From: Desulfosudaceae bacterium
Lineage (GTDB): Bacteria > Desulfobacterota > Desulfobacteria > Desulfobacterales > Desulfosudaceae
DNA length: 64,000 nt
Direction of reading: 5' to 3'
Assembly (NCBI GenBank): GCA_963674745.2
Contig: CAXXDV010000003.1
Coordinates: 1,568,001 to 1,632,000 of the forward strand
Shown: piece after piece, positions 19,878-47,365 of the stretch
Numbering within the stretch: the first letter of the stretch is position 1
Layout: the number at the start of each line of letters is the position of its first letter
Position numbers and translations under genes: made by a program
Notes under the pieces: model-generated
Seen by the model: only the letters and a program-made list of their open reading frames with translations
Databases searched by the model: none
What the model was told of the DNA's origin: nothing

Positions 19878-21146
19878 ATGTCGACTCAGGCCAACAAGAT
19901 CCAGACGTACAGATTTGAATACGATATTCCTGAAAATCCCGCAGATTTCAACCCTGCGGACTTTGTTGAGAAAGCGATATCCTGGGTGAAAAGCCTGGTG
20001 AAGCCGGGTGAGAAGATCGCTCTCTCCGCATCCGGGGGAGTTGACAGTACGGTCGCCGCGTTTCTCCTTGATCGTATCGTCGGCAAAGATCTTCATGCAT
20101 TCTTCATCGAAGACGGTTGCCGTCGCCTGATAAACGATAAACCCGAGGGAGAAGTCACGCGTAAAATCTTCAGCAAACTGAATTTCGAGGTCCTGGAGGT
20201 CAGGGACGAGATTCTCCCGCCGCTGGTGGGGCTTTCCGACGGTGAAGAGAAACGCAAGACGTTCATCGGCAACTACAGGAAAGTATCAGACAGGCATATC
20301 GCTCAGTTGGGTGCCTCCTGGATTGCAGACGGCACGATCGCACCGGACATTATTGAAACCGAAGGTGGCTTCAAAAGCCAGCATAATGTAGGCTGGAATT
20401 ATTCTGTCGGGAAGATCGAGCCGTTGGCGTCACTCGCGAAACCTCAGGTCAGGAAGGTCGGAGAGTACCTTGACCTTCCTCCGTCATTCACGCACCGGAT
20501 TCCTTGCCCGGGTCCCGCGCAAATTATCAGAACTGTAGGTGAATTCAACGAAGAGAAACTCCGTATTGGCCAACTCGCGTCCGACATCATCGAACAGGAG
20601 ACTGAGAAATATTACACTGAGAAACACGGTACCCCCTACCTTTACGACGAAACTACCGGCATCCGGACGCCCTTTCAGTACTTCGGAATGGCTCTTGACC
20701 CGCACATGGAACCCGACCAGGCCCTGGCAGATCTGGCGAACAGCATCCTCGGCGCGAACGCTGAATGCTTCAAGATGAATAGCCGAACGACGGTCGTCCC
20801 CGAAGAGGGAACGCGCCCCGAGGTCCCTATTTACAAACCTGTCTCCTGGATAAAGATCGACGGCGATATCGATTATGATAAGCTGAATACACTCTGTGTC
20901 GATGCATGGAAAAAACTTGAGCTTCCGCGCATTCTTCTCGAGATTTGCGCGAACAATGCGCCGAAAACCAGTTATGTTGTCGGCATGCGGGCGGTCGAGA
21001 GCGTGGCCGCAAAGCTGGCGCACCCGGTCAGGATAGATGAGGTCGCGCTCCTTGAGATGGGCAAAAAGATTGCCTCGCACACCGGCGCGTCGAGGGTAGC
21101 GTACGATATCAGCATCAAGCCACCGGCAACGATCGAATTCGAGTAG
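19878..21146 (+). CDS. GMP synthase ATP-pyrophosphatase/dimerisation subunit-like protein, no glutaminase domain
   Basis: SGGVDS PP-loop, KSQHNV, PCPGP, C-terminal KPPATIEFE. Confidence 0.85.
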   Translation: MSTQANKIQTYRFEYDIPENPADFNPADFVEKAISWVKSLVKPGEKIALSASGGVDSTVAAFLLDRIVGKDLHAFFIEDGCRRLINDKPEGEVTRKIFSKLNFEVLEVRDEILPPLVGLSDGEEKRKTFIGNYRKVSDRHIAQLGASWIADGTIAPDIIETEGGFKSQHNVGWNYSVGKIEPLASLAKPQVRKVGEYLDLPPSFTHRIPCPGPAQIIRTVGEFNEEKLRIGQLASDIIEQETEKYYTEKHGTPYLYDETTGIRTPFQYFGMALDPHMEPDQALADLANSILGANAECFKMNSRTTVVPEEGTRPEVPIYKPVSWIKIDGDIDYDKLNTLCVDAWKKLELPRILLEICANNAPKTSYVVGMRAVESVAAKLAHPVRIDEVALLEMGKKIASHTGASRVAYDISIKPPATIEFE

Positions 21147-22254
21147 CTATTGTCTGTGGCTCAAATCCTCTCGCCCCGGCCAAAACATAGATATGAAAAA
21201 GGCACTTATGTTTAAGTGCCTTTTTCATTGGGTTATAAATCATACCCCCCCAATCAATCAAAGCGACTCCCCTTTCTTTTGCGATAATTTCTCCCCTCTT
21301 TGATGCACGGCTTACTGCTGATTGGCTGATCTCTAATTTCTGAGCAATCGCAACCGTGCTAATGCCCAACCTGCGTTGCGCCCAGAAACAAAGCAGCGAC
21401 CGTGCTTCTACGATTCGCGGTGATTTTCCTGAGGCTGTCACCAGATCGGTATTTATCCCCATTACTTCCGCCACACGTTCGATTACACGGTCAAAATCAT
21501 AACCCCTGATCCTTAAATCATATTTTTGTTCAAAAGATTCTTCAGCTGATTTTAGAACATTTATCACGAAATCACTGTCACCTAATATACGTTCATCTCC
21601 TCTTGATCGAATTCCTTCTTTACGGTGTTTCTGCAAAACAGTCCAACCGCCGGTACTCCGTATTAACCCTCCTCCGGTCAGGTCGGGGCGTTTGCCCTGT
21701 TCAACCCCACGATCAACAAATTTGCGATACTTCTTTTGCGCGATTTCTTTTCGTTCATCAAACCATCCGTAAACATAATCGGTATTCTGCCAAGCTCTTT
21801 TTACCACACCCATTAACGTGCCATGTCCGCACCAGGGATGTTTTTCAAGCTCATCCAGCCCTTTGACAATCCCGGCCCTTAATGGATTTAAATGGATATA
21901 ACGAACCAGTTCTTTCAGATATCGATCTTCCTGACATAAAATTGATTTATAACGGTTTTGAAAAAGATGACCATGACGCTGGTACTTCTTGTTGAACCAT
22001 CCCGCATACCCCGTAAGCAAGCGGTTCATGAATATGGAAATCGGTATAACCCCGGTTCTCATCACTAAATGGACATGATTGGGAATCAGCGCCCAGGCAA
22101 AACAATCGGTTTTGGTTTCTGGAATTAAAACTGAAAGCCGGTTAAGAAAATTCTCTCGATCAAAATCGGATCGAAATATCTGCCGTCTTTCGATCCCTCT
22201 GATAATCAGATGATGCAACGCTCCCGGAGCGTCGATTCTCGCCTTCCGTGGCAT
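21115..22254 (-). CDS. REP-associated tyrosine transposase (RAYT / Y1 HUH) with C-terminal HTH; last ~45 aa are probably read-through
   Basis: MPRKARIDAPGALHH..IRG, HUH motif PNHVHL, GHLFQNRYKS, catalytic YIHLNP. Confidence 0.9.
   Translation of the reverse strand: MPRKARIDAPGALHHLIIRGIERRQIFRSDFDRENFLNRLSVLIPETKTDCFAWALIPNHVHLVMRTGVIPISIFMNRLLTGYAGWFNKKYQRHGHLFQNRYKSILCQEDRYLKELVRYIHLNPLRAGIVKGLDELEKHPWCGHGTLMGVVKRAWQNTDYVYGWFDERKEIAQKKYRKFVDRGVEQGKRPDLTGGGLIRSTGGWTVLQKHRKEGIRSRGDERILGDSDFVINVLKSAEESFEQKYDLRIRGYDFDRVIERVAEVMGINTDLVTASGKSPRIVEARSLLCFWAQRRLGISTVAIAQKLEISQSAVSRASKRGEIIAKERGVALIDWGGMIYNPMKKALKHKCLFHIYVLAGARGFEPQTIATRIRSLPVA
21158..21182 (+). pseudogene. 3' fragment of a tRNA (Pro-like), possible att remnant
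   Basis: ggctcaaatcctctcgccccggcca resembles T-loop, acceptor strand and CCA; no 5' half present. Confidence 0.55.
21194..21227. terminator. Bidirectional intrinsic terminator
   Basis: tgaaaaaggcactta-tgtt-taagtgcctttttca inverted repeat. Confidence 0.75.
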
Positions 22255-22287: not shown

Positions 22288-22318
22288 GAAACGCATAAAA
22301 TCATAGACGTCCCCACTT
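22288..22318 (-). repeat. Family A REP left end, 33 bp upstream of the RAYT start
   Basis: Reverse complement of aagtggggacgtctatgattttatgcgtttc. Confidence 0.9.
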
Positions 22319-22368
22319 CCACTCCATGCTTGCATCCCCCCTGGCTTTATAAAATATAATGCTTGTTG

Positions 22369-29683: not shown

Positions 29684-29947
29684 AACCGGGGTCGGACCAA
29701 ACCAACAGCCTGATCTAAAACAAGACACACGAAATACGGGGAACAGTATATCTGTTTCAAATCTATTGCCTGCAGAAAATAAGTATCATGGATGTCCCCG
29801 GAATACCTTTTCTGTTTTTTTTATCTCTTTGATAATGTCCTGTCAAACCCCGCCTGAAAGGACCATCAACATGTGGTGGCCTCAACAATATTGACATACA
29901 AGGCCGTCCTTGCTATAAATGGTGGCCATAAAAGCAAGTTCTTATCC
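29684..29947 (+). mobile_element. Family B non-coding element with a nested family D pair (29732-29807)
   Basis: Left end aaccggggtcggacc; right end ttgaca-17-tataaa...gttcttatcc. Confidence 0.8.
29891..29919 (+). promoter_or_regulatory. Sigma70-type promoter inside the family B right end
   Basis: TTGACA-17 bp-TATAAA. Confidence 0.7.
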
Positions 29948-41462: not shown

Positions 41463-44000
41463 CTATGTTCCAACCTCACCGGCACATTCATCCAGCACCC
41501 AACGAACAGCAGCGGCCAGTTGATCCCGCCGAACCGGCTTCATCAAAAAGGCATTGATCCCCAGGGCCGTGGCCTTTTTTTCATCTATCTGCTGGTTGAA
41601 GCCCGTGCACAGAATAACGGGCAATCGGGGCCGGATTTTATGAATTTCGGCGATCAGCTGAACACCGGTCATTTCCGGCATGGTCATGTCGGTCACCATC
41701 AGGTCAAACGTATCCGGGGCGTTCCGAAAAGCTTCCAGGGCGAGCGGACTGCCAACGTGCGGCGTCACTTTATAACCGAAGCCGGTCAAGAGCGAATTCA
41801 ACATGTCAAGGATACTGAGCTCGTCGTCAACCAGGAGAATATGTTCCGTTCCCCTGTTGGCCGAACCAGGCTTGTCCGCCGGCATTGGAGCGCACTCTGG
41901 GCCTGCCGCCGCCACCGGAAGAAAAACATGAAATGTCGCCCCCTGCCCGGGTGTGCTGGACACATCGATCAGGCCTTCATGCTCTCTGACGATCCCATAA
42001 GAAACTGACAGCCCCAGGCCGGTGCCTTTACCGATTTCCTTGGTCGTATAAAAGGGATCAAAGATTTTCATCATAACCGCCGGGTCCATCCCTGTGCCCG
42101 TGTCCGAAACAGACAGGTCGATGTAGTTCCCGGGCGCTATCTCCACACTCGGCAGTCGATCCCCAACAAGCTCAATTTCATTAAGCCCGATCGCAATTAT
42201 GCCGACATCCGCCTCCATGGCGTGGTGAGCGTTCACGATCAGGTTCATCAGCACCTGATGGATTTGGCCGGGATTGGCCATCACCGGCCGGCAGGACGAA
42301 TCAATATCAGCCCTTATCTCTATTGAGGTGGGTATAGAATGCCGGGTCAGGTCCAGTACCTCACGGATGATGTCCTGTATTTTGACGGGTGTTTTGTCGC
42401 TCTGCCGCTGCCGGCTGAAGGCGAGAATCTGTTTGACCAGATCGCTTGCTCGAGAGGCACTGCCCAGAATGGCTCGGGCATATTTTTGTTGTAGACTGTC
42501 GCCGCGCGTTATTTCCATGAGCATCTCAGCGTAACCGACGATCGGTGACAGGACGTTGTTGAAGTCATGCGCAATGCCGCCGGCAAGTGTTCCGATGGAC
42601 TCCATTTTCTGGGCCTGCAGGAGCTGGGATTGGAGGCTGATATTTTCCATCTCGGCCCGGCGGCGGGCGGTGATGTCACGGAACGTCCAGATACGGCCGT
42701 AGTTTTGGCCGTCTTTGCCTACAACAGGCGCCGAATATCGCTCCAAAACAGTCCCGTCCTTCAGTGCGACTTCGTCCTGCAATGTCTCCTCCGGATGGTT
42801 GTAAAGAAAGGTAACCTGCGCCAGAAACGCTTCCGGGTCCTTTGTTGAATTCATAACATACTGGACCTGGGTCTGATCATCGTCATTGTCGGCGATATGT
42901 TGCGGGATTTTCCAGAGTTCAATGCTCCGTCGGTTTTGAAAGACCTTTTTCCCTCTGCCGTCAACCACCAAAAGGCCTTCAGTGGTGGTATTGGCCTGGG
43001 CCTCTAAAAGCGCGGCCTGCCGGCGCAACTCGTCTTCCGCCCGTTTCTGATCCGATATATCGCGGGCCACTGAATACGTCACCCCCTTTTCCGGCTTCGG
43101 GTGTGACACCCAACTGAGCCAGCGGTAGCTACCGTCCCGGCACATATACCGGTTAATGAAATTGATTACCCTTTCCCCTTTTTGAAGTTTCGACTCCACC
43201 ATGTCTATTGTCTTCATGACATCATCCGGATGGATAAATTCAAGAAACGGTTTTGACTGGAGCTCATCTTCAGTAAAACCGAGCGTTTCCGTAAAGGCCG
43301 GATTGATCCTTATAAATGTCGAGGTCCGGATATCGGCAATGCATAGCATATCGAGGGACATGGAGAACACCTGCTCGAATTCTTTTCGGGCAAGCTGAAA
43401 GTAGATCAGAATCATCCCGATTGCGACAATAATCTCAATAAAGGCCCCCAGCAGGTATCCCCATGGGGCAAACCACTCCACGGGCCTCAGGAAGGGGTAA
43501 TCGATCTTGTGAACCCCCCATATGATAAAAGCAATCCCGACAACGCTCGGAAGGATTCCGTCCACCGTTCTGTACCGGAGTATCATGATGCCGGTCCAGA
43601 TGAAAACCATCCCGATAAACAGATAATTGGGAAGGCTTAAGAAAAGCAGGGTGGTGTCCGTCATGCCGCAGGCAAAAATCCACATGCCAATGGCAACTGC
43701 AAGATACACCCATAGCCGGTGCATGGACCGGTTGATAAAAACAAAGGTCCCGTACATCAGAAACATTCCGCTCAAGAGGGTGGTGATCTGGTTGCTGATC
43801 AACAGATACCGGGAATAGTCGTCGGGCCCGGCTGTAATCAGCACCAGCATCAATACGAAACGCAGGGTATATATGCACCACCCTATGGACCAGATGAACA
43901 GGTATTTCTGCCTGTCAACCGTATACAGGTAGAAGAAGGTCAGGGTCAGGACGACCGTTCCTGACAGCGTTGCGACAACCGAAGGTATCAGCCAGTTCAT
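41463..44000 (-). CDS. Hybrid sensor histidine kinase (multi-TM, 2 PAS, HisKA, HATPase, receiver)
   Basis: GGIAHDFNN H-box, DPFYTTK, GTGLGL, LLVDDE...TDMTMP. Confidence 0.94.
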   Translation of the reverse strand: MNWLIPSVVATLSGTVVLTLTFFYLYTVDRQKYLFIWSIGWCIYTLRFVLMLVLITAGPDDYSRYLLISNQITTLLSGMFLMYGTFVFINRSMHRLWVYLAVAIGMWIFACGMTDTTLLFLSLPNYLFIGMVFIWTGIMILRYRTVDGILPSVVGIAFIIWGVHKIDYPFLRPVEWFAPWGYLLGAFIEIIVAIGMILIYFQLARKEFEQVFSMSLDMLCIADIRTSTFIRINPAFTETLGFTEDELQSKPFLEFIHPDDVMKTIDMVESKLQKGERVINFINRYMCRDGSYRWLSWVSHPKPEKGVTYSVARDISDQKRAEDELRRQAALLEAQANTTTEGLLVVDGRGKKVFQNRRSIELWKIPQHIADNDDDQTQVQYVMNSTKDPEAFLAQVTFLYNHPEETLQDEVALKDGTVLERYSAPVVGKDGQNYGRIWTFRDITARRRAEMENISLQSQLLQAQKMESIGTLAGGIAHDFNNVLSPIVGYAEMLMEITRGDSLQQKYARAILGSASRASDLVKQILAFSRQRQSDKTPVKIQDIIREVLDLTRHSIPTSIEIRADIDSSCRPVMANPGQIHQVLMNLIVNAHHAMEADVGIIAIGLNEIELVGDRLPSVEIAPGNYIDLSVSDTGTGMDPAVMMKIFDPFYTTKEIGKGTGLGLSVSYGIVREHEGLIDVSSTPGQGATFHVFLPVAAAGPECAPMPADKPGSANRGTEHILLVDDELSILDMLNSLLTGFGYKVTPHVGSPLALEAFRNAPDTFDLMVTDMTMPEMTGVQLIAEIHKIRPRLPVILCTGFNQQIDEKKATALGINAFLMKPVRRDQLAAAVRWVLDECAGEVGT

Positions 44001-44111
44001 GTGTAAACGGTTTCTCCTTGAAGAGTTTTGCCCGTGGTGAGCGGGAAAGGCTGAATTTTATAGTCTATTAATATAAATAATCTCACAATAATCTGTATGA
44101 AGCAAGCAATA

Positions 44112-44156
44112 GGGGTCGGACCAGGCTAACTTAGGGTATTCCGGTATTCCGGGGAC
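44112..44156 (+). repeat. Family B left end plus left half of an interrupted family D REP
   Basis: ggggtcggacc; ggtattcc-ggtattccggggac. Confidence 0.75.
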
Positions 44157-44179
44157 ATCCATGATAAGTAAAGTCAAGG

Positions 44180-44490
44180 GAAAAAAAGAGTTTTCCCATC
44201 CGCCAAAGAATACCCCCTGGTGGTTATGTTCCCGGTTCTCCGCGTAAGCTCTTTTTAATCTGTGTCTATTCGATCGACGGTCTGCCGCGACCAGACATCC
44301 ATTTGCTGTATCAGCCGCTTTATCCTTAATAAATAAAGCGGCGTCACAGAAGATTGAGTTTGGGTTAAAACCCGCCGGCCTCGAAACAGTATAAAAGATT
44401 GTATCTCGATCGGCTGTTCGATCACACAGTCCCCAAAACGCGAGGCCCGGCGGGAAAGCAACAGACGGATAAACCGTTATTTTATAAAAT
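44180..44490 (-). ncRNA. Predicted bridge/seek RNA of the IS110 element
   Basis: Stem-enclosed segments matching the target (acagtata, gtcccc) and the donor junction (acatccat, gtttg). Confidence 0.75.
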
Positions 44491-45528
44491 CTATGCCGCT
44501 TCCTGTTCTTCTCCTTTCGGCAGTTCAAACGTCTTTTGTCCTTTATCAACCGCAAGCATGTAGGCGACAAGCTTTCGTGCTACCGCCAGCGTGGCCCGGT
44601 TTTTATTGCCTTTCTCGATCTCTCGGGCATGCACCTCGGCCAGTTGCGGGTTCCAGTAAGGTGCCAGTTTGGCCGCTTCGACCAATATCGTTTGTAAATG
44701 TTTGTTTCGCTTCTTCGATATTGGGCCTCTCATATTTTTGCCGGCCGACTCTCTTTGAGCGCTGCATAACCCGCAATAACTGACAGCTTTCCGGGCCGAT
44801 GAAAAACGGCCAGGATCTCCGATCTCCAGTGCCCAGGTCAGGGCCGTAACCTCTCCGACACCCCTGATGGACATCAGTCGATCCACCCGTTCTTTTATCT
44901 GCTCATTATTGCGGAGCACCTTTAACAGTTTTTTTTGGATATCGGTAAACATCTCATATCCGGATCGGGACATGCGCAGCAGGTTTATTACCGACTCGGG
45001 CACATCTTCCATGTTCTCCAGCAACTCACGAAAATATTTTTTCCGGTGCAGTCTGCTTTTGGTGTATTCCGCGCCGCATTCCATCAGGAGGCCGGATATT
45101 TTGTTTTGCATACGAACCGCCTCTCTGACGATATGATTGCGATAACGGAGAATGCGGCGCAACTCCCGCATATCCTCAGGCATCATGTAACACTCCGGCA
45201 ATAAATCGCACCGCAACAGATCGGCAATCATTCGCGCGTCTACTTTGTCGTTTTTCTTTTTGGATGCAGAAATAGCCTTGAGCATCTGGGGATGGGCGAC
45301 CTTCAACTCCTCAGCATACGGTTTTAAAAAATCATAAATCCATCCTGAAAACATCGTTGCTTCCATGGCGCCTGTCCACGGCCCTGGCAGACCATCTGCC
45401 CAGTGGGTTAAAGCGGAACGCGTAGCGGATATCACCCCTTGTCCGATAACGGTTCCGTCTTGTTGTTTAATGCAATAAGCGATAGTTTTCTTGTGAATGT
45501 CCAGTCCGATATAGTATGATTTTTTCAT
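44491..45528 (-). CDS. IS110 family transposase/recombinase
   Basis: YIGLDIHK, MEAT, KNDKVDA (DEDD) and SAQRESAG (catalytic Ser); start MKKSYY after GGAGG. Confidence 0.95.
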   Translation of the reverse strand: MKKSYYIGLDIHKKTIAYCIKQQDGTVIGQGVISATRSALTHWADGLPGPWTGAMEATMFSGWIYDFLKPYAEELKVAHPQMLKAISASKKKNDKVDARMIADLLRCDLLPECYMMPEDMRELRRILRYRNHIVREAVRMQNKISGLLMECGAEYTKSRLHRKKYFRELLENMEDVPESVINLLRMSRSGYEMFTDIQKKLLKVLRNNEQIKERVDRLMSIRGVGEVTALTWALEIGDPGRFSSARKAVSYCGLCSAQRESAGKNMRGPISKKRNKHLQTILVEAAKLAPYWNPQLAEVHAREIEKGNKNRATLAVARKLVAYMLAVDKGQKTFELPKGEEQEAA

Positions 45529-45704
45529 GGGAGACCTCCTTGTTTGTGGATTCAGATTCTGAGCAAGCCCAGTGCCTGTCTCAGCCGGTATTTTAAATAC
45601 CACATCTGCCACCGGGAGGTCTCCTCTCTCAATTAACTTACTTATGCATTCAAACAGTATACTGGTTTAAATCTATATACAGAGATCGCCAGACCGGAAT
45701 TCCA

Positions 45705-47345
45705 TTATTCTGCCTGCAGTTTGACTGCCGTTAACGAACAAGGCGGAAACGAAAAGGCATCAGGTGTTTTGCCTTGAGGGGAGATACTTAGCGGGATAAT
45801 GTTTTCACGGTTCTCCGGTGTGTTTTGCGCGAACGGATCATCATGGGTAAGTGACATTATTTCCTTGAAGACGAATTGACGGTCAGTGAAGCCGGCAAAA
45901 GAGATCCCGGTTTTGACATGTTGTTCCAGGTGCCGGTTGACAACAACCAGAGATATGTTTTTCCCGTCATCCGACATGGTCGCCCCGGCATCGAGTACCG
46001 GGATTGCACCTTCCTTTACCATGCCGATTTTTTTATTCATAACCGTGGGGCATGCCATGTCAAGCGCCAGGTGATTTTGGTAAGCGTTGCTGAAAATCAT
46101 CCAAAAGGCATGGTAACTGGTGGTTTTAACGATCCCCCGGTCGTCGGTCCTGATCAGCCCGAGGCAATTAATCAGCTGGGAGCAGTTCCCCATGCCCATT
46201 ATTTTCCCCAGCCGCATCATTGACAACAGGACGGATGCCACAAACAAAGAATCGCTCAAGGTCCAGTTTGTTTTTATCATCTGTGACATCTGATACCAGG
46301 CATTCCATTCATCCAGTGCTATCCTGACAGTTGTGTCAGGGCCAAGCGCGTCTTCAACGGACTGCCGGCATCGACGCAACATCATTTCAAATTCAGCGGG
46401 AGCGGCCTGCATGGCATAATGTACTTTTTCATTATGCCAGGGGGGCAGGGAGCGACCCAGAAGCGCCCGGGGATTTATAATATTAATGTTTGTCCACGGT
46501 GCGTAAATATGAACACTCAAATAATCGACATAGCCGTCAATCGCGCTTAAAAGCGTGGTGTTCCATTCCGCCGTATGACGGGTAACAAGGATATCCCGCC
46601 ACCCGGGGTCAATGCCGCTGGCGACCAGCCTGATACCCGGATCTTTCTGTTTCATGGCCCTGGCAAACTGCAGGTATCGCCGGGCGTAGCTGTCCGGGCG
46701 TTTTTCCCAGCCTGGAATATACCTGCCCCAGATTTCATTGGCGATCCCCCAGTATTTTACATTATACGGTTCGGGATTGACCTTTGCCCGCAGAGCGCCG
46801 AATGCCGTGTCTGAAGAACCGTTACAGTATTCTACCCAATTGGCGGCCTCTTCGGGTGTGCCGGTTCCATAATTGATGTTGATATACGGATCGGCGTTGA
46901 TTTTCCGGCAGAGGGCATTAAACTCATCCGTGCCGAATTGATTATGAACATAAGGGCCGGGCACGCCATATTTATTTCTGAAAAATCCATAGGGGATGAA
47001 TTTGCCCCAGAATTTATTGGGGTGCCCTCTTCTGTCTTCTGATTTTCCGACACCGTCCTGCCAATGGTATGTCTCGGCATAGTTCCCCCCCGGCCACCTG
47101 AGCACAGGTCCCGGCCCTTTGTCGGCATGTTGAAACAGCGGGATCACGGCCTGAAGAACATCTGCCCGGACGCCGCTCAAAAAAGAGTCATCGCAGTGCG
47201 GCAGGCTTTTGTATCGCTCCGAGGTTGTCCACAGGCCGTCATGAATGGCCTCACCGAGTTCCTCGATAAAATGGCCGAATATATTTCTGTCAATTTGATG
47301 CTGAATATTATTCTTGATTTTGATGTCAGCCACTGAATACCCCAC
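45705..47345 (-). CDS. GH51 alpha-L-arabinofuranosidase-like glycoside hydrolase (start uncertain)
   Basis: FGHFIE, LRWPGGN, FGTDEF, WGIANE, LDEWN. Confidence 0.9.
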   Translation of the reverse strand: MGYSVADIKIKNNIQHQIDRNIFGHFIEELGEAIHDGLWTTSERYKSLPHCDDSFLSGVRADVLQAVIPLFQHADKGPGPVLRWPGGNYAETYHWQDGVGKSEDRRGHPNKFWGKFIPYGFFRNKYGVPGPYVHNQFGTDEFNALCRKINADPYININYGTGTPEEAANWVEYCNGSSDTAFGALRAKVNPEPYNVKYWGIANEIWGRYIPGWEKRPDSYARRYLQFARAMKQKDPGIRLVASGIDPGWRDILVTRHTAEWNTTLLSAIDGYVDYLSVHIYAPWTNINIINPRALLGRSLPPWHNEKVHYAMQAAPAEFEMMLRRCRQSVEDALGPDTTVRIALDEWNAWYQMSQMIKTNWTLSDSLFVASVLLSMMRLGKIMGMGNCSQLINCLGLIRTDDRGIVKTTSYHAFWMIFSNAYQNHLALDMACPTVMNKKIGMVKEGAIPVLDAGATMSDDGKNISLVVVNRHLEQHVKTGISFAGFTDRQFVFKEIMSLTHDDPFAQNTPENRENIIPLSISPQGKTPDAFSFPPCSLTAVKLQAE

Positions 47346-47365
47346 GAATCTCGGGGACAGTATAT
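47346..47365 (+). repeat. Family D REP
   Basis: gaatctcggggacagtatat. Confidence 0.7.

Follow-up and report, generated by a model that had tools for sequence, protein, structure and literature searches.

A 64,000-nucleotide stretch of the genome of a Desulfosudaceae bacterium (contig CAXXDV010000003.1, positions 1,568,001 to 1,632,000; hereafter the window) carries an insertion sequence of the IS110 family at 44157-45655, placed inside one copy of a short repeat that we call family D. Our results indicate that this is very probably an intact IS1111-type member of the family, in which a DEDD/serine recombinase is guided by an RNA from the 334-nucleotide (nt) region downstream of its gene, and that its target is family D, a sequence resembling a repetitive extragenic palindrome (REP). 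The evidence comes from the anatomy of the element, from two genomic copies that split an identical target, and from related loci in which the RNA structure is conserved and the guides covary with the flanking DNA.

The element is 1,499 bp long if the AC/GT core is counted once, and is read from the minus strand; its limits are those of the stretch that, together with the target bases, is shared by two 100% identical copies in the genome. Its only long gene (44491-45528, minus strand) encodes a transposase/recombinase of 345 amino acids (aa) and has AGGAGG ahead of the ATG. Upstream of the gene is a left end of 127 nt (45529-45655, minus strand) with a subterminal inverted repeat at 45636-45649, and downstream is the 334-nt right-end non-coding region (44157-44490, minus strand), which contains the predicted bridge RNA or seekRNA and a subterminal inverted repeat at 44161-44174. 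The two repeats start 4 nt inside the core and have 8 contiguous nt in common (ATAAGTAA); that of the left end reads ATGCATAAGTAAGT and that of the right end ATG-ATAAGTAAAGT. A longer non-coding region downstream of the gene and subterminal inverted repeats are described as marks of the IS1111 group (Siddiquee et al., PMC11187229; Durrant et al., PMC11208160). Because the present element has a downstream region of 334 nt, an upstream region of 127 nt and subterminal inverted repeats (7-17 bp expected), we assigned it to this group. The dinucleotide AC (GT on the element strand) stands at both junctions of both copies as a 2-nt core, which fits the insertion of IS110-family elements at specific sites without terminal inverted repeats.

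Protein family models agreed with the original prediction, made from the sequence alone, that this is an IS110/IS1111 element. The transposase matched the Pfam domains DEDD_Tnp_IS110 (PF01548, E 1.6e-20) and Transposase_20 (PF02371, E 2.9e-20), and it passed the NCBIfam model NF033542 (IS110 family RNA-guided transposase) with 210.8 bits, the cut-off being 140. The closest solved structure, with an E value of 7.1e-8 and similarity chiefly in the C-terminal domain, is 8wt6, the recombinase of IS621, for which the catalytic residues are given as D11, E60, D102, D105 and S241 (PMC11208158). D10, E56, D94 and D97 of the present protein align with the four acidic residues of IS621. The catalytic-type serine is found within GLCSAQRESAG, where S-A-G is invariant in 79/79 related loci; the HMMER alignment sets S241 of IS621 opposite an alanine, and the motif spacing GL-x----S sets it on S261. 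The C-terminal motif described for the IS1111 group is GL-P----S(t)G, with occasional TA variants (PMC11187229). In the present clade it is invariably GLCS----SA, so that the serine is kept, the proline is replaced by serine, and the glycine by alanine.

The genome (5.55 Mb in 3 contigs) contains two copies of the element, that in the window and a second one on contig C1 (2188863-2190377, a span that includes target bases). In the window, GGGG-AC (44151-44156) is followed by ATCCATG, and TTCAA-AC (45650-45655) is followed by AGTATAC. It had been claimed that removing 44157-45655 restores family D and that the ends of the excised circle would join as TTCAA-AC-ATCCAT. All of these strings were found in place; excision in silico yielded the family D sequence GGGGACAGTATAC and the predicted circle junction TTCAAACATCCAT. 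By eye, the joined ends (44157-44185 with 45640-45655) also place a right-end TTGACT 17 nt upstream of a left-end TTGAAT; such an arrangement might serve as a promoter at the junction, directed toward the transposase gene, as has been reported for the circles of IS621. The C1 copy is flanked by TTCCGGGGAC on one side and ACAGTATA on the other, exactly as in the window. Beyond the bases adjoining the element, the flanks of the two copies differ (left, GGTATTCCGGTATTCCGGGGAC in the window and GATTTCCGGATTTCCGGGGAC on C1; right, ACAGTATAC and ACAGTATAA, respectively). Both copies therefore split the same target, TTCCGGGG-AC-AGTATA. In the window, the left half of the interrupted repeat (GGTATTCC GGTATTCC GGGGAC) occupies 44135-44156, and the right half, with a degenerate inverted partner ending in CCGGAATTCC, occupies 45656-45703, both on the plus strand.

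A probable trace of a further insertion was found in the inverted pair of family D at 29739-29812 (plus strand), one half of which retains 10 nt from the element's right end. Here, 29784-29807 (minus strand) is identical at 24/24 positions to the left junction of the element, 44143-44166, and the half reads GGGGAC-ATCCATG-ATAC, versus GGGGAC-AGT-ATAC when intact; that is, ATCCATG replaces AGT. From its sequence, this segment is a probable scar of a lost third insertion, deleted across a 3-nt ATA repeat. The exact 12-mer GGGGACAGTATA, the perfect target core, is present and unoccupied at only two places in 5.55 Mb, both of them family D copies in the D-rich region described below, one being 47353-47364 (plus strand) of the window. 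The insertion sites of other copies had been proposed as a check, and every known insertion, i.e., the two copies and the one probable scar, is in family D. The element was probably active recently.

The assembled reads were compatible with these copy numbers. In the source run (X1), a contig covering 44151-45661 has a depth of 21 versus flank depths of 10 and 14, which fits two copies, and the contigs of this run break at the element ends, as expected of a two-copy repeat. Among the contigs of four sequencing runs, none joins across an empty site. A joint between 44197 and 44287, seen in a single contig with 22 nt on its short side, is left without interpretation. In runs X1, X3, X4 and X6, several contigs match only within 44139-44197, where they cover the final 35-45 nt of the right end at 2-6 differences before passing into unrelated sequence. 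They have no counterpart in the assembled genome and probably represent related elements in other organisms of those samples.

Family D is clustered. The sequence GGGGACAGTATAC with ≤2 mismatches occurs 10 times in the window, whereas 100 shuffles gave 0.74 occurrences on average and never more than 4. A profile built from 18 copies gave 33 matches in the genome at E values up to 1, 27 of them within C3:1,501,506-1,616,235, a count that leans toward this interval since the seeds came from it. In a seed-independent search, the 12-mer with ≤1 mismatch was found 24 times genome-wide and 11 times in the D region, which makes up 2% of the genome. Family D is confined to about 115 kb of accessory DNA with mixed gene content; its copies stand in the gaps between genes and in many cases form inverted pairs 60-75 bp in length.

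The original prediction took these copies for cassette-boundary sites. In that case, family D would be an integron-like or dif-module-like recombination site bounding mobile cassettes, which the element parasitises and could reshuffle. The location of D copies in intergenic gaps beside many genes of the 115-kb stretch would suit this explanation, as would one copy that forms a tight 11-6-11 palindrome (TTCCGGGAACA GTATAC TGTCCCCCGAA) and the published IS1111 relatives that target attC (cited as reference 24 of PMC11208160). However, none of the 21 matches to the tyrosine recombinase model PF00589 in the genome lies within C3:1.49-1.63 Mb, an absence for which the integron version was rejected, and D was found to flank a different kind of gene, that of a Y1 transposase resembling the REP-associated tyrosine transposases (RAYT). 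The D motif is enriched in genomes of the same family (e.g., 28 occurrences versus 1 for the reversed control in G006, and 11 versus 0 in G011). In G011, two D copies lie just upstream, and one inverted D just downstream, of a gene for a 221-aa protein whose N-terminus is of the Y1/HUH type (...PHHITQRGN). When homologues of this RAYT-like protein were collected (15 loci in 8 related genomes, E up to 1e-30), a D core with ≤2 mismatches was found within 100 nt of the gene at 14/15 loci, and on both sides, in inverted orientation, at 7/15. No intact copy of the gene is present in the genome studied here. A 44-residue remnant, 59% identical to the RAYT-like C-terminus (E 9.6e-10), is located at C3:1566245-1566376 (L109:1501-1632), about 1.7 kb before the window start. 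It occupies exactly the interval between an inverted pair of D copies, at 1566210 and 1566374. According to Nunvar et al. (PMC2817692), rayt genes are always flanked by two inverted REPs, and the REPs of some genomes occur only within ≤200 kb of the rayt gene, a clustering that also argues against cassette boundaries. It is thus very unlikely that family D bounds cassettes, and nothing in the analysis supported a reshuffling of cassettes. Judging from the sequence, the best reading of family D is that of a REP-like repeat at the ends of a Y1 transposase unit of RAYT-like type, the gene of which has decayed here.

A second Y1 gene was considered as the partner of family D and was rejected. This gene, at 21115-22254 of the window (minus strand, 379 aa, Pfam Y1_Tnp), scores 54.3 bits against the cut-off of 80 of the NCBIfam model NF047646 (REP-associated tyrosine transposase), is not flanked by D, and its product is only 33% identical to the D-linked protein of the relatives. 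It is accompanied only by a terminator-like hairpin, at 21193-21228. The region upstream of the gene (~22300-22345) holds GGGGACGTCTATGATTTTATGCGTTTCC, which resembles sequences adjoining the D copies at C3:1554693 and C3:1573694 and may belong to a second repeat family. G006 has 7 copies, whole or partial, of the RAYT-like gene with D ends, a number that resembles an active insertion sequence more than a domesticated RAYT, which is kept as a single copy. Genes of the defence type are also present in the D-rich region, at C3:1.512-1.522 Mb (L090:16206-17402 and neighbours); they encode a homologue of Druantia DruA, an ORC/Cdc6-like kinase fusion, a Fic/RhuM protein and a BglII-type endonuclease.

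The right-end non-coding region contains both halves of the family D target within a predicted structured RNA, as the original prediction had it. The stem arms 44371-44383 (CCCGCCGGCCTCG) and 44441-44454 (CGAGGCCCGGCGGG) pair with one bulge and enclose ACAGTATA (44386-44393) and GTCCCC (44429-44434). On the element strand, the order is outer stem CCCGCCGGGCCUCG, loop strand CGUUUUGGGGAC, inner hairpin, loop strand UAUACUGUU and closing arm of the outer stem UCGAGGCCGGCGGG, and downstream of this target module follow ACUCAAUC, a second hairpin, AUGGAUGU and a third hairpin. The target-binding module (44371-44454, minus strand) is made up of the outer stem, an internal loop and the inner hairpin (44394-44428), and both of its stems keep their pairing through two-sided changes among relatives. 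The predicted 5' target guide, RNA GUUUUGGGGAC (44429-44439, minus strand), can pair with the target GTCCCCGGAAT through 6 Watson-Crick pairs, then 2 U.G pairs, 2 U-A pairs and one G.T wobble; GGGGAC is complementary to GTCCCC of the target, and the four preceding U's pair with GGAA by two U.G and two U-A pairs. The predicted 3' target guide, RNA UAUACUGU (44384-44393, minus strand, followed by UU), is identical to the left flank plus core, TATACTGT, so that it would pair with the other DNA strand. With the UU included, it matches the post-insertion left junction at 10/10 positions. For IS1111 seekRNAs, the top-strand match is described as lying 5' of the bottom-strand match, with the two overlapping in the target (Siddiquee et al., PMC11187229), and IS1111 bridge RNAs are placed in the right end (Durrant et al., PMC11208160). 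The guides of the present element follow this published order, with their overlap on the core.

Strings of this kind are rarely expected in a region of such composition. When 44175-44490 was shuffled 20,000 times with its dinucleotide composition preserved, 4 of the shuffled sequences contained both ACAGTATA and GTCCCC, and none contained these two and the donor-side string ACATCCAT. The single-sequence fold of the right-end non-coding region has a free energy of -108.3 kcal/mol (z = -3.63); in it, GGGGA is weakly paired with UCUUU, a pairing that is absent from the consensus fold of relatives described below. A sigma-70 scan of the minus strand ahead of the RNA found no promoter-like site. 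The sequencing runs on record for this DNA include no RNA run, which is neutral as to the expression of the predicted RNA.

We then compared the element with its relatives. A scan of one genome per prokaryote species yielded 79 loci, nearly all from Thermodesulfobacteriota, with transposases 62-73% identical to that of the window. Both element ends are kept across these loci, as (GT)TTGAATGCATAAGTA on the left and TACTTATCATGGAT(GT) on the right, and the DNA outside the ends varies. The scaffold of the target module was recognized in 71 of 80 elements (the 79 loci plus the present one); seven loci were without the 5' stem motif in the first 140 nt past the gene, and L049 and L084 fell under the stem-score threshold. 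The variable parts of the scaffold are the two loop strands. A consensus fold was computed from 59 of 61 unique sequences (L053 and L076 were excluded for long insertions) and comprises 34 pairs, 20 of which show compensatory changes on both sides, and the guide columns are unpaired in it save for one isolated predicted pair.

The loop strands of each element were compared with the flanks of the same element, with the 3' loop strand right-aligned on the core, and the flanks were permuted among loci 2,000 times to obtain a background. The 3' guide matched its own left flank at a mean of 5.73/9 positions (n = 59), as compared to 3.59 for permuted pairs (standard deviation 0.17, maximum 4.19), and the 5' guide matched the reverse complement of the right flank at 7.69/10 (n = 52), as compared to 6.30 (maximum 6.83). 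When a single locus was kept for each distinct guide pair, z was 11.5 for the 3' guide (n = 50) and 8.2 for the 5' guide (n = 43), values which, to the disadvantage of our reading, overstate independence, since the relatives share descent. The weakest cases were 3/9 (L034, L048, L051 and L080) and 4/10 (L023). It could be argued that the matches between region and flank are coincidence or a product of shared ancestry, and that the protein chooses the site. Many targets in the clade are alike (GTCCCC..., ...CTGT), which raises the background, and permuted pairs still reach 6.3/10. However, for neither guide did any of the 2,000 permutations reach the observed score, and matching loops occur on quite different flanks: L083 has 7/7 and 9/9, L018 has 8/8 and 10/10, and L028 (9/9) and L086 (8/8) are further strong cases. 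Together with the rarity of both target strings in the shuffles of the element's own region, this makes coincidence extremely improbable as an explanation. The predicted guides of the element are neither buried in stems nor uncoupled from their targets, as the consensus fold leaves the loops open and the guides covary with the flanks.

The same relatives were used to examine the donor guides. The original prediction had placed the two donor halves at ACATCCAT (44295-44302) and GTTTG (44358-44362). The former held: at this position the RNA strand AUGGAUGU (minus strand) has the same sense as the right end plus core, and in the six loci with the right end CATAGAT instead of CATGGAT (L017, L032, L036, L040, L045 and L070) it reads AUAGAUGU in 6/6, versus 0/47 of the others. 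The latter was misplaced by a few bases. The CCCAAAC that contains the complement of GTTTG varies (CCCTAAC, CCCACAC, CACTAAC) while the left end is unchanged, and CAAAC was rejected as a guide. The second donor half was moved to 44352-44359 (minus strand) because CUCAAUC becomes CUUAAUC in step with the left end, namely in 4/4 loci with the left-end variant GTTTAAATG (L055, L067, L071 and L081), versus 0/60 others. The 5' donor guide is therefore probably RNA ACUCAAUC. Between the two donor strands is a hairpin (44306-44349, minus strand) with a CUGU...ACAG closing stem, whose closing pairs have 27 and 14 two-sided changes.

The donor reading is held at lower confidence than the target reading, and it must be weighed against the explanation that only the target is read by RNA. 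In that case, a seekRNA of ~80-100 nt would consist of the target module alone, the protein would recognize the ends through the subterminal inverted repeats, and the donor-like strings would be structure or scaffold. SeekRNAs of 82-96 nt that carry target matches are indeed described by Siddiquee et al. (PMC11187229), and the donor ends are nearly invariant in the clade, so that covariation there is thin. On the other hand, both single-position covariations are perfect, and L017 and L032 bear the right-end variant on a scaffold unlike that of L036, L040, L045 and L070. Durrant et al. (PMC11208160) report that the donor pairing of IS621 is discontinuous and that many IS1111 elements have their donor-binding bases in a multi-loop; therefore, the donor layout seen here is not out of line. 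We consider a target-only RNA unlikely, and retain an RNA that reads both target and donor as the preferred reading.

Several observations nevertheless weigh against the preferred reading, most of them on the donor side. The predicted pairing of the 5' donor strand with the left end GTTTGAAT is discontinuous (6/8), and this strand ignores another left-end variant, GTTAGAATG, as CUCAAUC is unchanged at 6 loci. In the RNAalifold model, AUCU from the 5' donor strand is paired with GGAU from the 3' donor guide, and these bases might therefore form RNA structure rather than read DNA. The donor covariation amounts to one variable position per end, the test being thin because the element ends hardly vary, and it is partly a matter of descent, as L036, L040, L045 and L070 share a stem variant. 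On the target side, the 5' guide of the present element has just 6 Watson-Crick pairs with its target, the remainder depending on U.G wobbles, and a scan of 43500-46200 with Rfam 15 at E values up to 10 gave no match. As for the target repeat, a REP is recognized by a GT(A/G)G head plus an imperfect palindrome. The half-sites of family D are without a clear REP hairpin and by eye contain just short palindromes (CAGTATACTG or GGAATTCC), full palindromes arising from D pairs, and the D-flanked RAYT-like protein scores 76.1 bits on NF047646, under the cut-off of 80. Because its half-sites lack an obvious hairpin and the protein falls just under the family cut-off, family D is not a textbook REP.

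The mechanism that we propose would proceed as follows. The target module would act as an internal loop in which the 5' strand GUUUUGGGGAC pairs with the target DNA strand GTCCCCGGAA, and the 3' strand UAUACUGU pairs with the opposite strand of TATACTGT. The two target guides would overlap on the GT core, the presumed site of exchange. In the donor module, ACUCAAUC and AUGGAUGU flank a hairpin and would match the left and right ends of the element as these are joined in the excised circle. By analogy with published relatives, the RNA would be made and bound by the protein, a circular intermediate would form, and the order of strand exchange would be that of those relatives.

As described in the literature, several known systems resemble the element. 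ISEc11, ISPa11, ISKpn4 and ISPst6, IS1111 elements with seekRNAs (PMC11187229), are alike in transposase size (family range 330-350 aa), in the long downstream non-coding region, in the subterminal inverted repeats, and in having the top-strand match 5' of the bottom-strand match with overlap in the target. Compared by description, the present element differs from these four in its GLCS----SA motif, where they have GL-P----S(t)G, in its target sequence and in its host phylum. IS621 of E. coli (PMC11208160, PMC11208158, PDB 8wt6) shares the aligned DEDD and serine residues, a two-part RNA that reads both strands of target and donor around a 2-nt core, and insertion into REP sequences (reference B31 of PMC2817692). 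However, IS621 belongs to the IS110 group, with its RNA in the left end, upstream of the gene, and the guide order reversed; its core is CT rather than GT, and the similarity at the protein level is weak (see above). ISPpu9 and ISPpu10 of Pseudomonas putida (PMC12288879, PMC8450116) are likewise reported as IS110-family elements that have inserted into REP sequences and whose transposase gene is followed by a gene for a small RNA, but in another host and another REP family. Finally, IS4321/IS5075 and the IS1111-attC group (references in PMC11208160) are described as IS1111 members that insert at one position inside a repeat belonging to a different mobile element. They aim at the terminal repeats of the Tn21 family or at attC sites of integrons, whereas the present element is inserted in what is best read as the end repeat of a Y1 unit of RAYT-like type.

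IS1111 and IS110 elements that aim at REP-type repeats by means of bridge RNAs or seekRNAs were already known, and RNA guidance of both groups was published in 2024. The element adds to this published kind a member from another phylum, whose serine motif is slightly unusual; no new kind of system is opened. Sequence comparison alone confirms that the bridge RNA/seekRNA principle, published in 2024 for elements of enterobacteria and pseudomonads, also applies to a clade from bacteria that reduce sulfate and metals. With some 60 different pairs of natural guides on a single scaffold, this clade could help to define the pairing rules of IS1111 RNAs, such as U.G wobbles and discontinuous donor pairing. 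Family D is re-read as the REP-like end of a Y1 transposase unit rather than as a cassette site, which bears on any separate reading of this repeat. A further reading, which we consider less likely than not, is that a large Thermodesulfobacteriota clade of IS1111 elements has specialised on RAYT-like Y1 end repeats, keeping one RNA scaffold and retuning its two loop strands as the repeats diversify. If this is true, an RNA-guided element tracks the DNA of another, partly domesticated mobile element, and the element studied here has outlived its 'host' transposon, the gene of which is a remnant. The clade would then provide, ready-made by nature, a series of >60 guides that were reprogrammed on a compact 3' bridge RNA (~200 nt).

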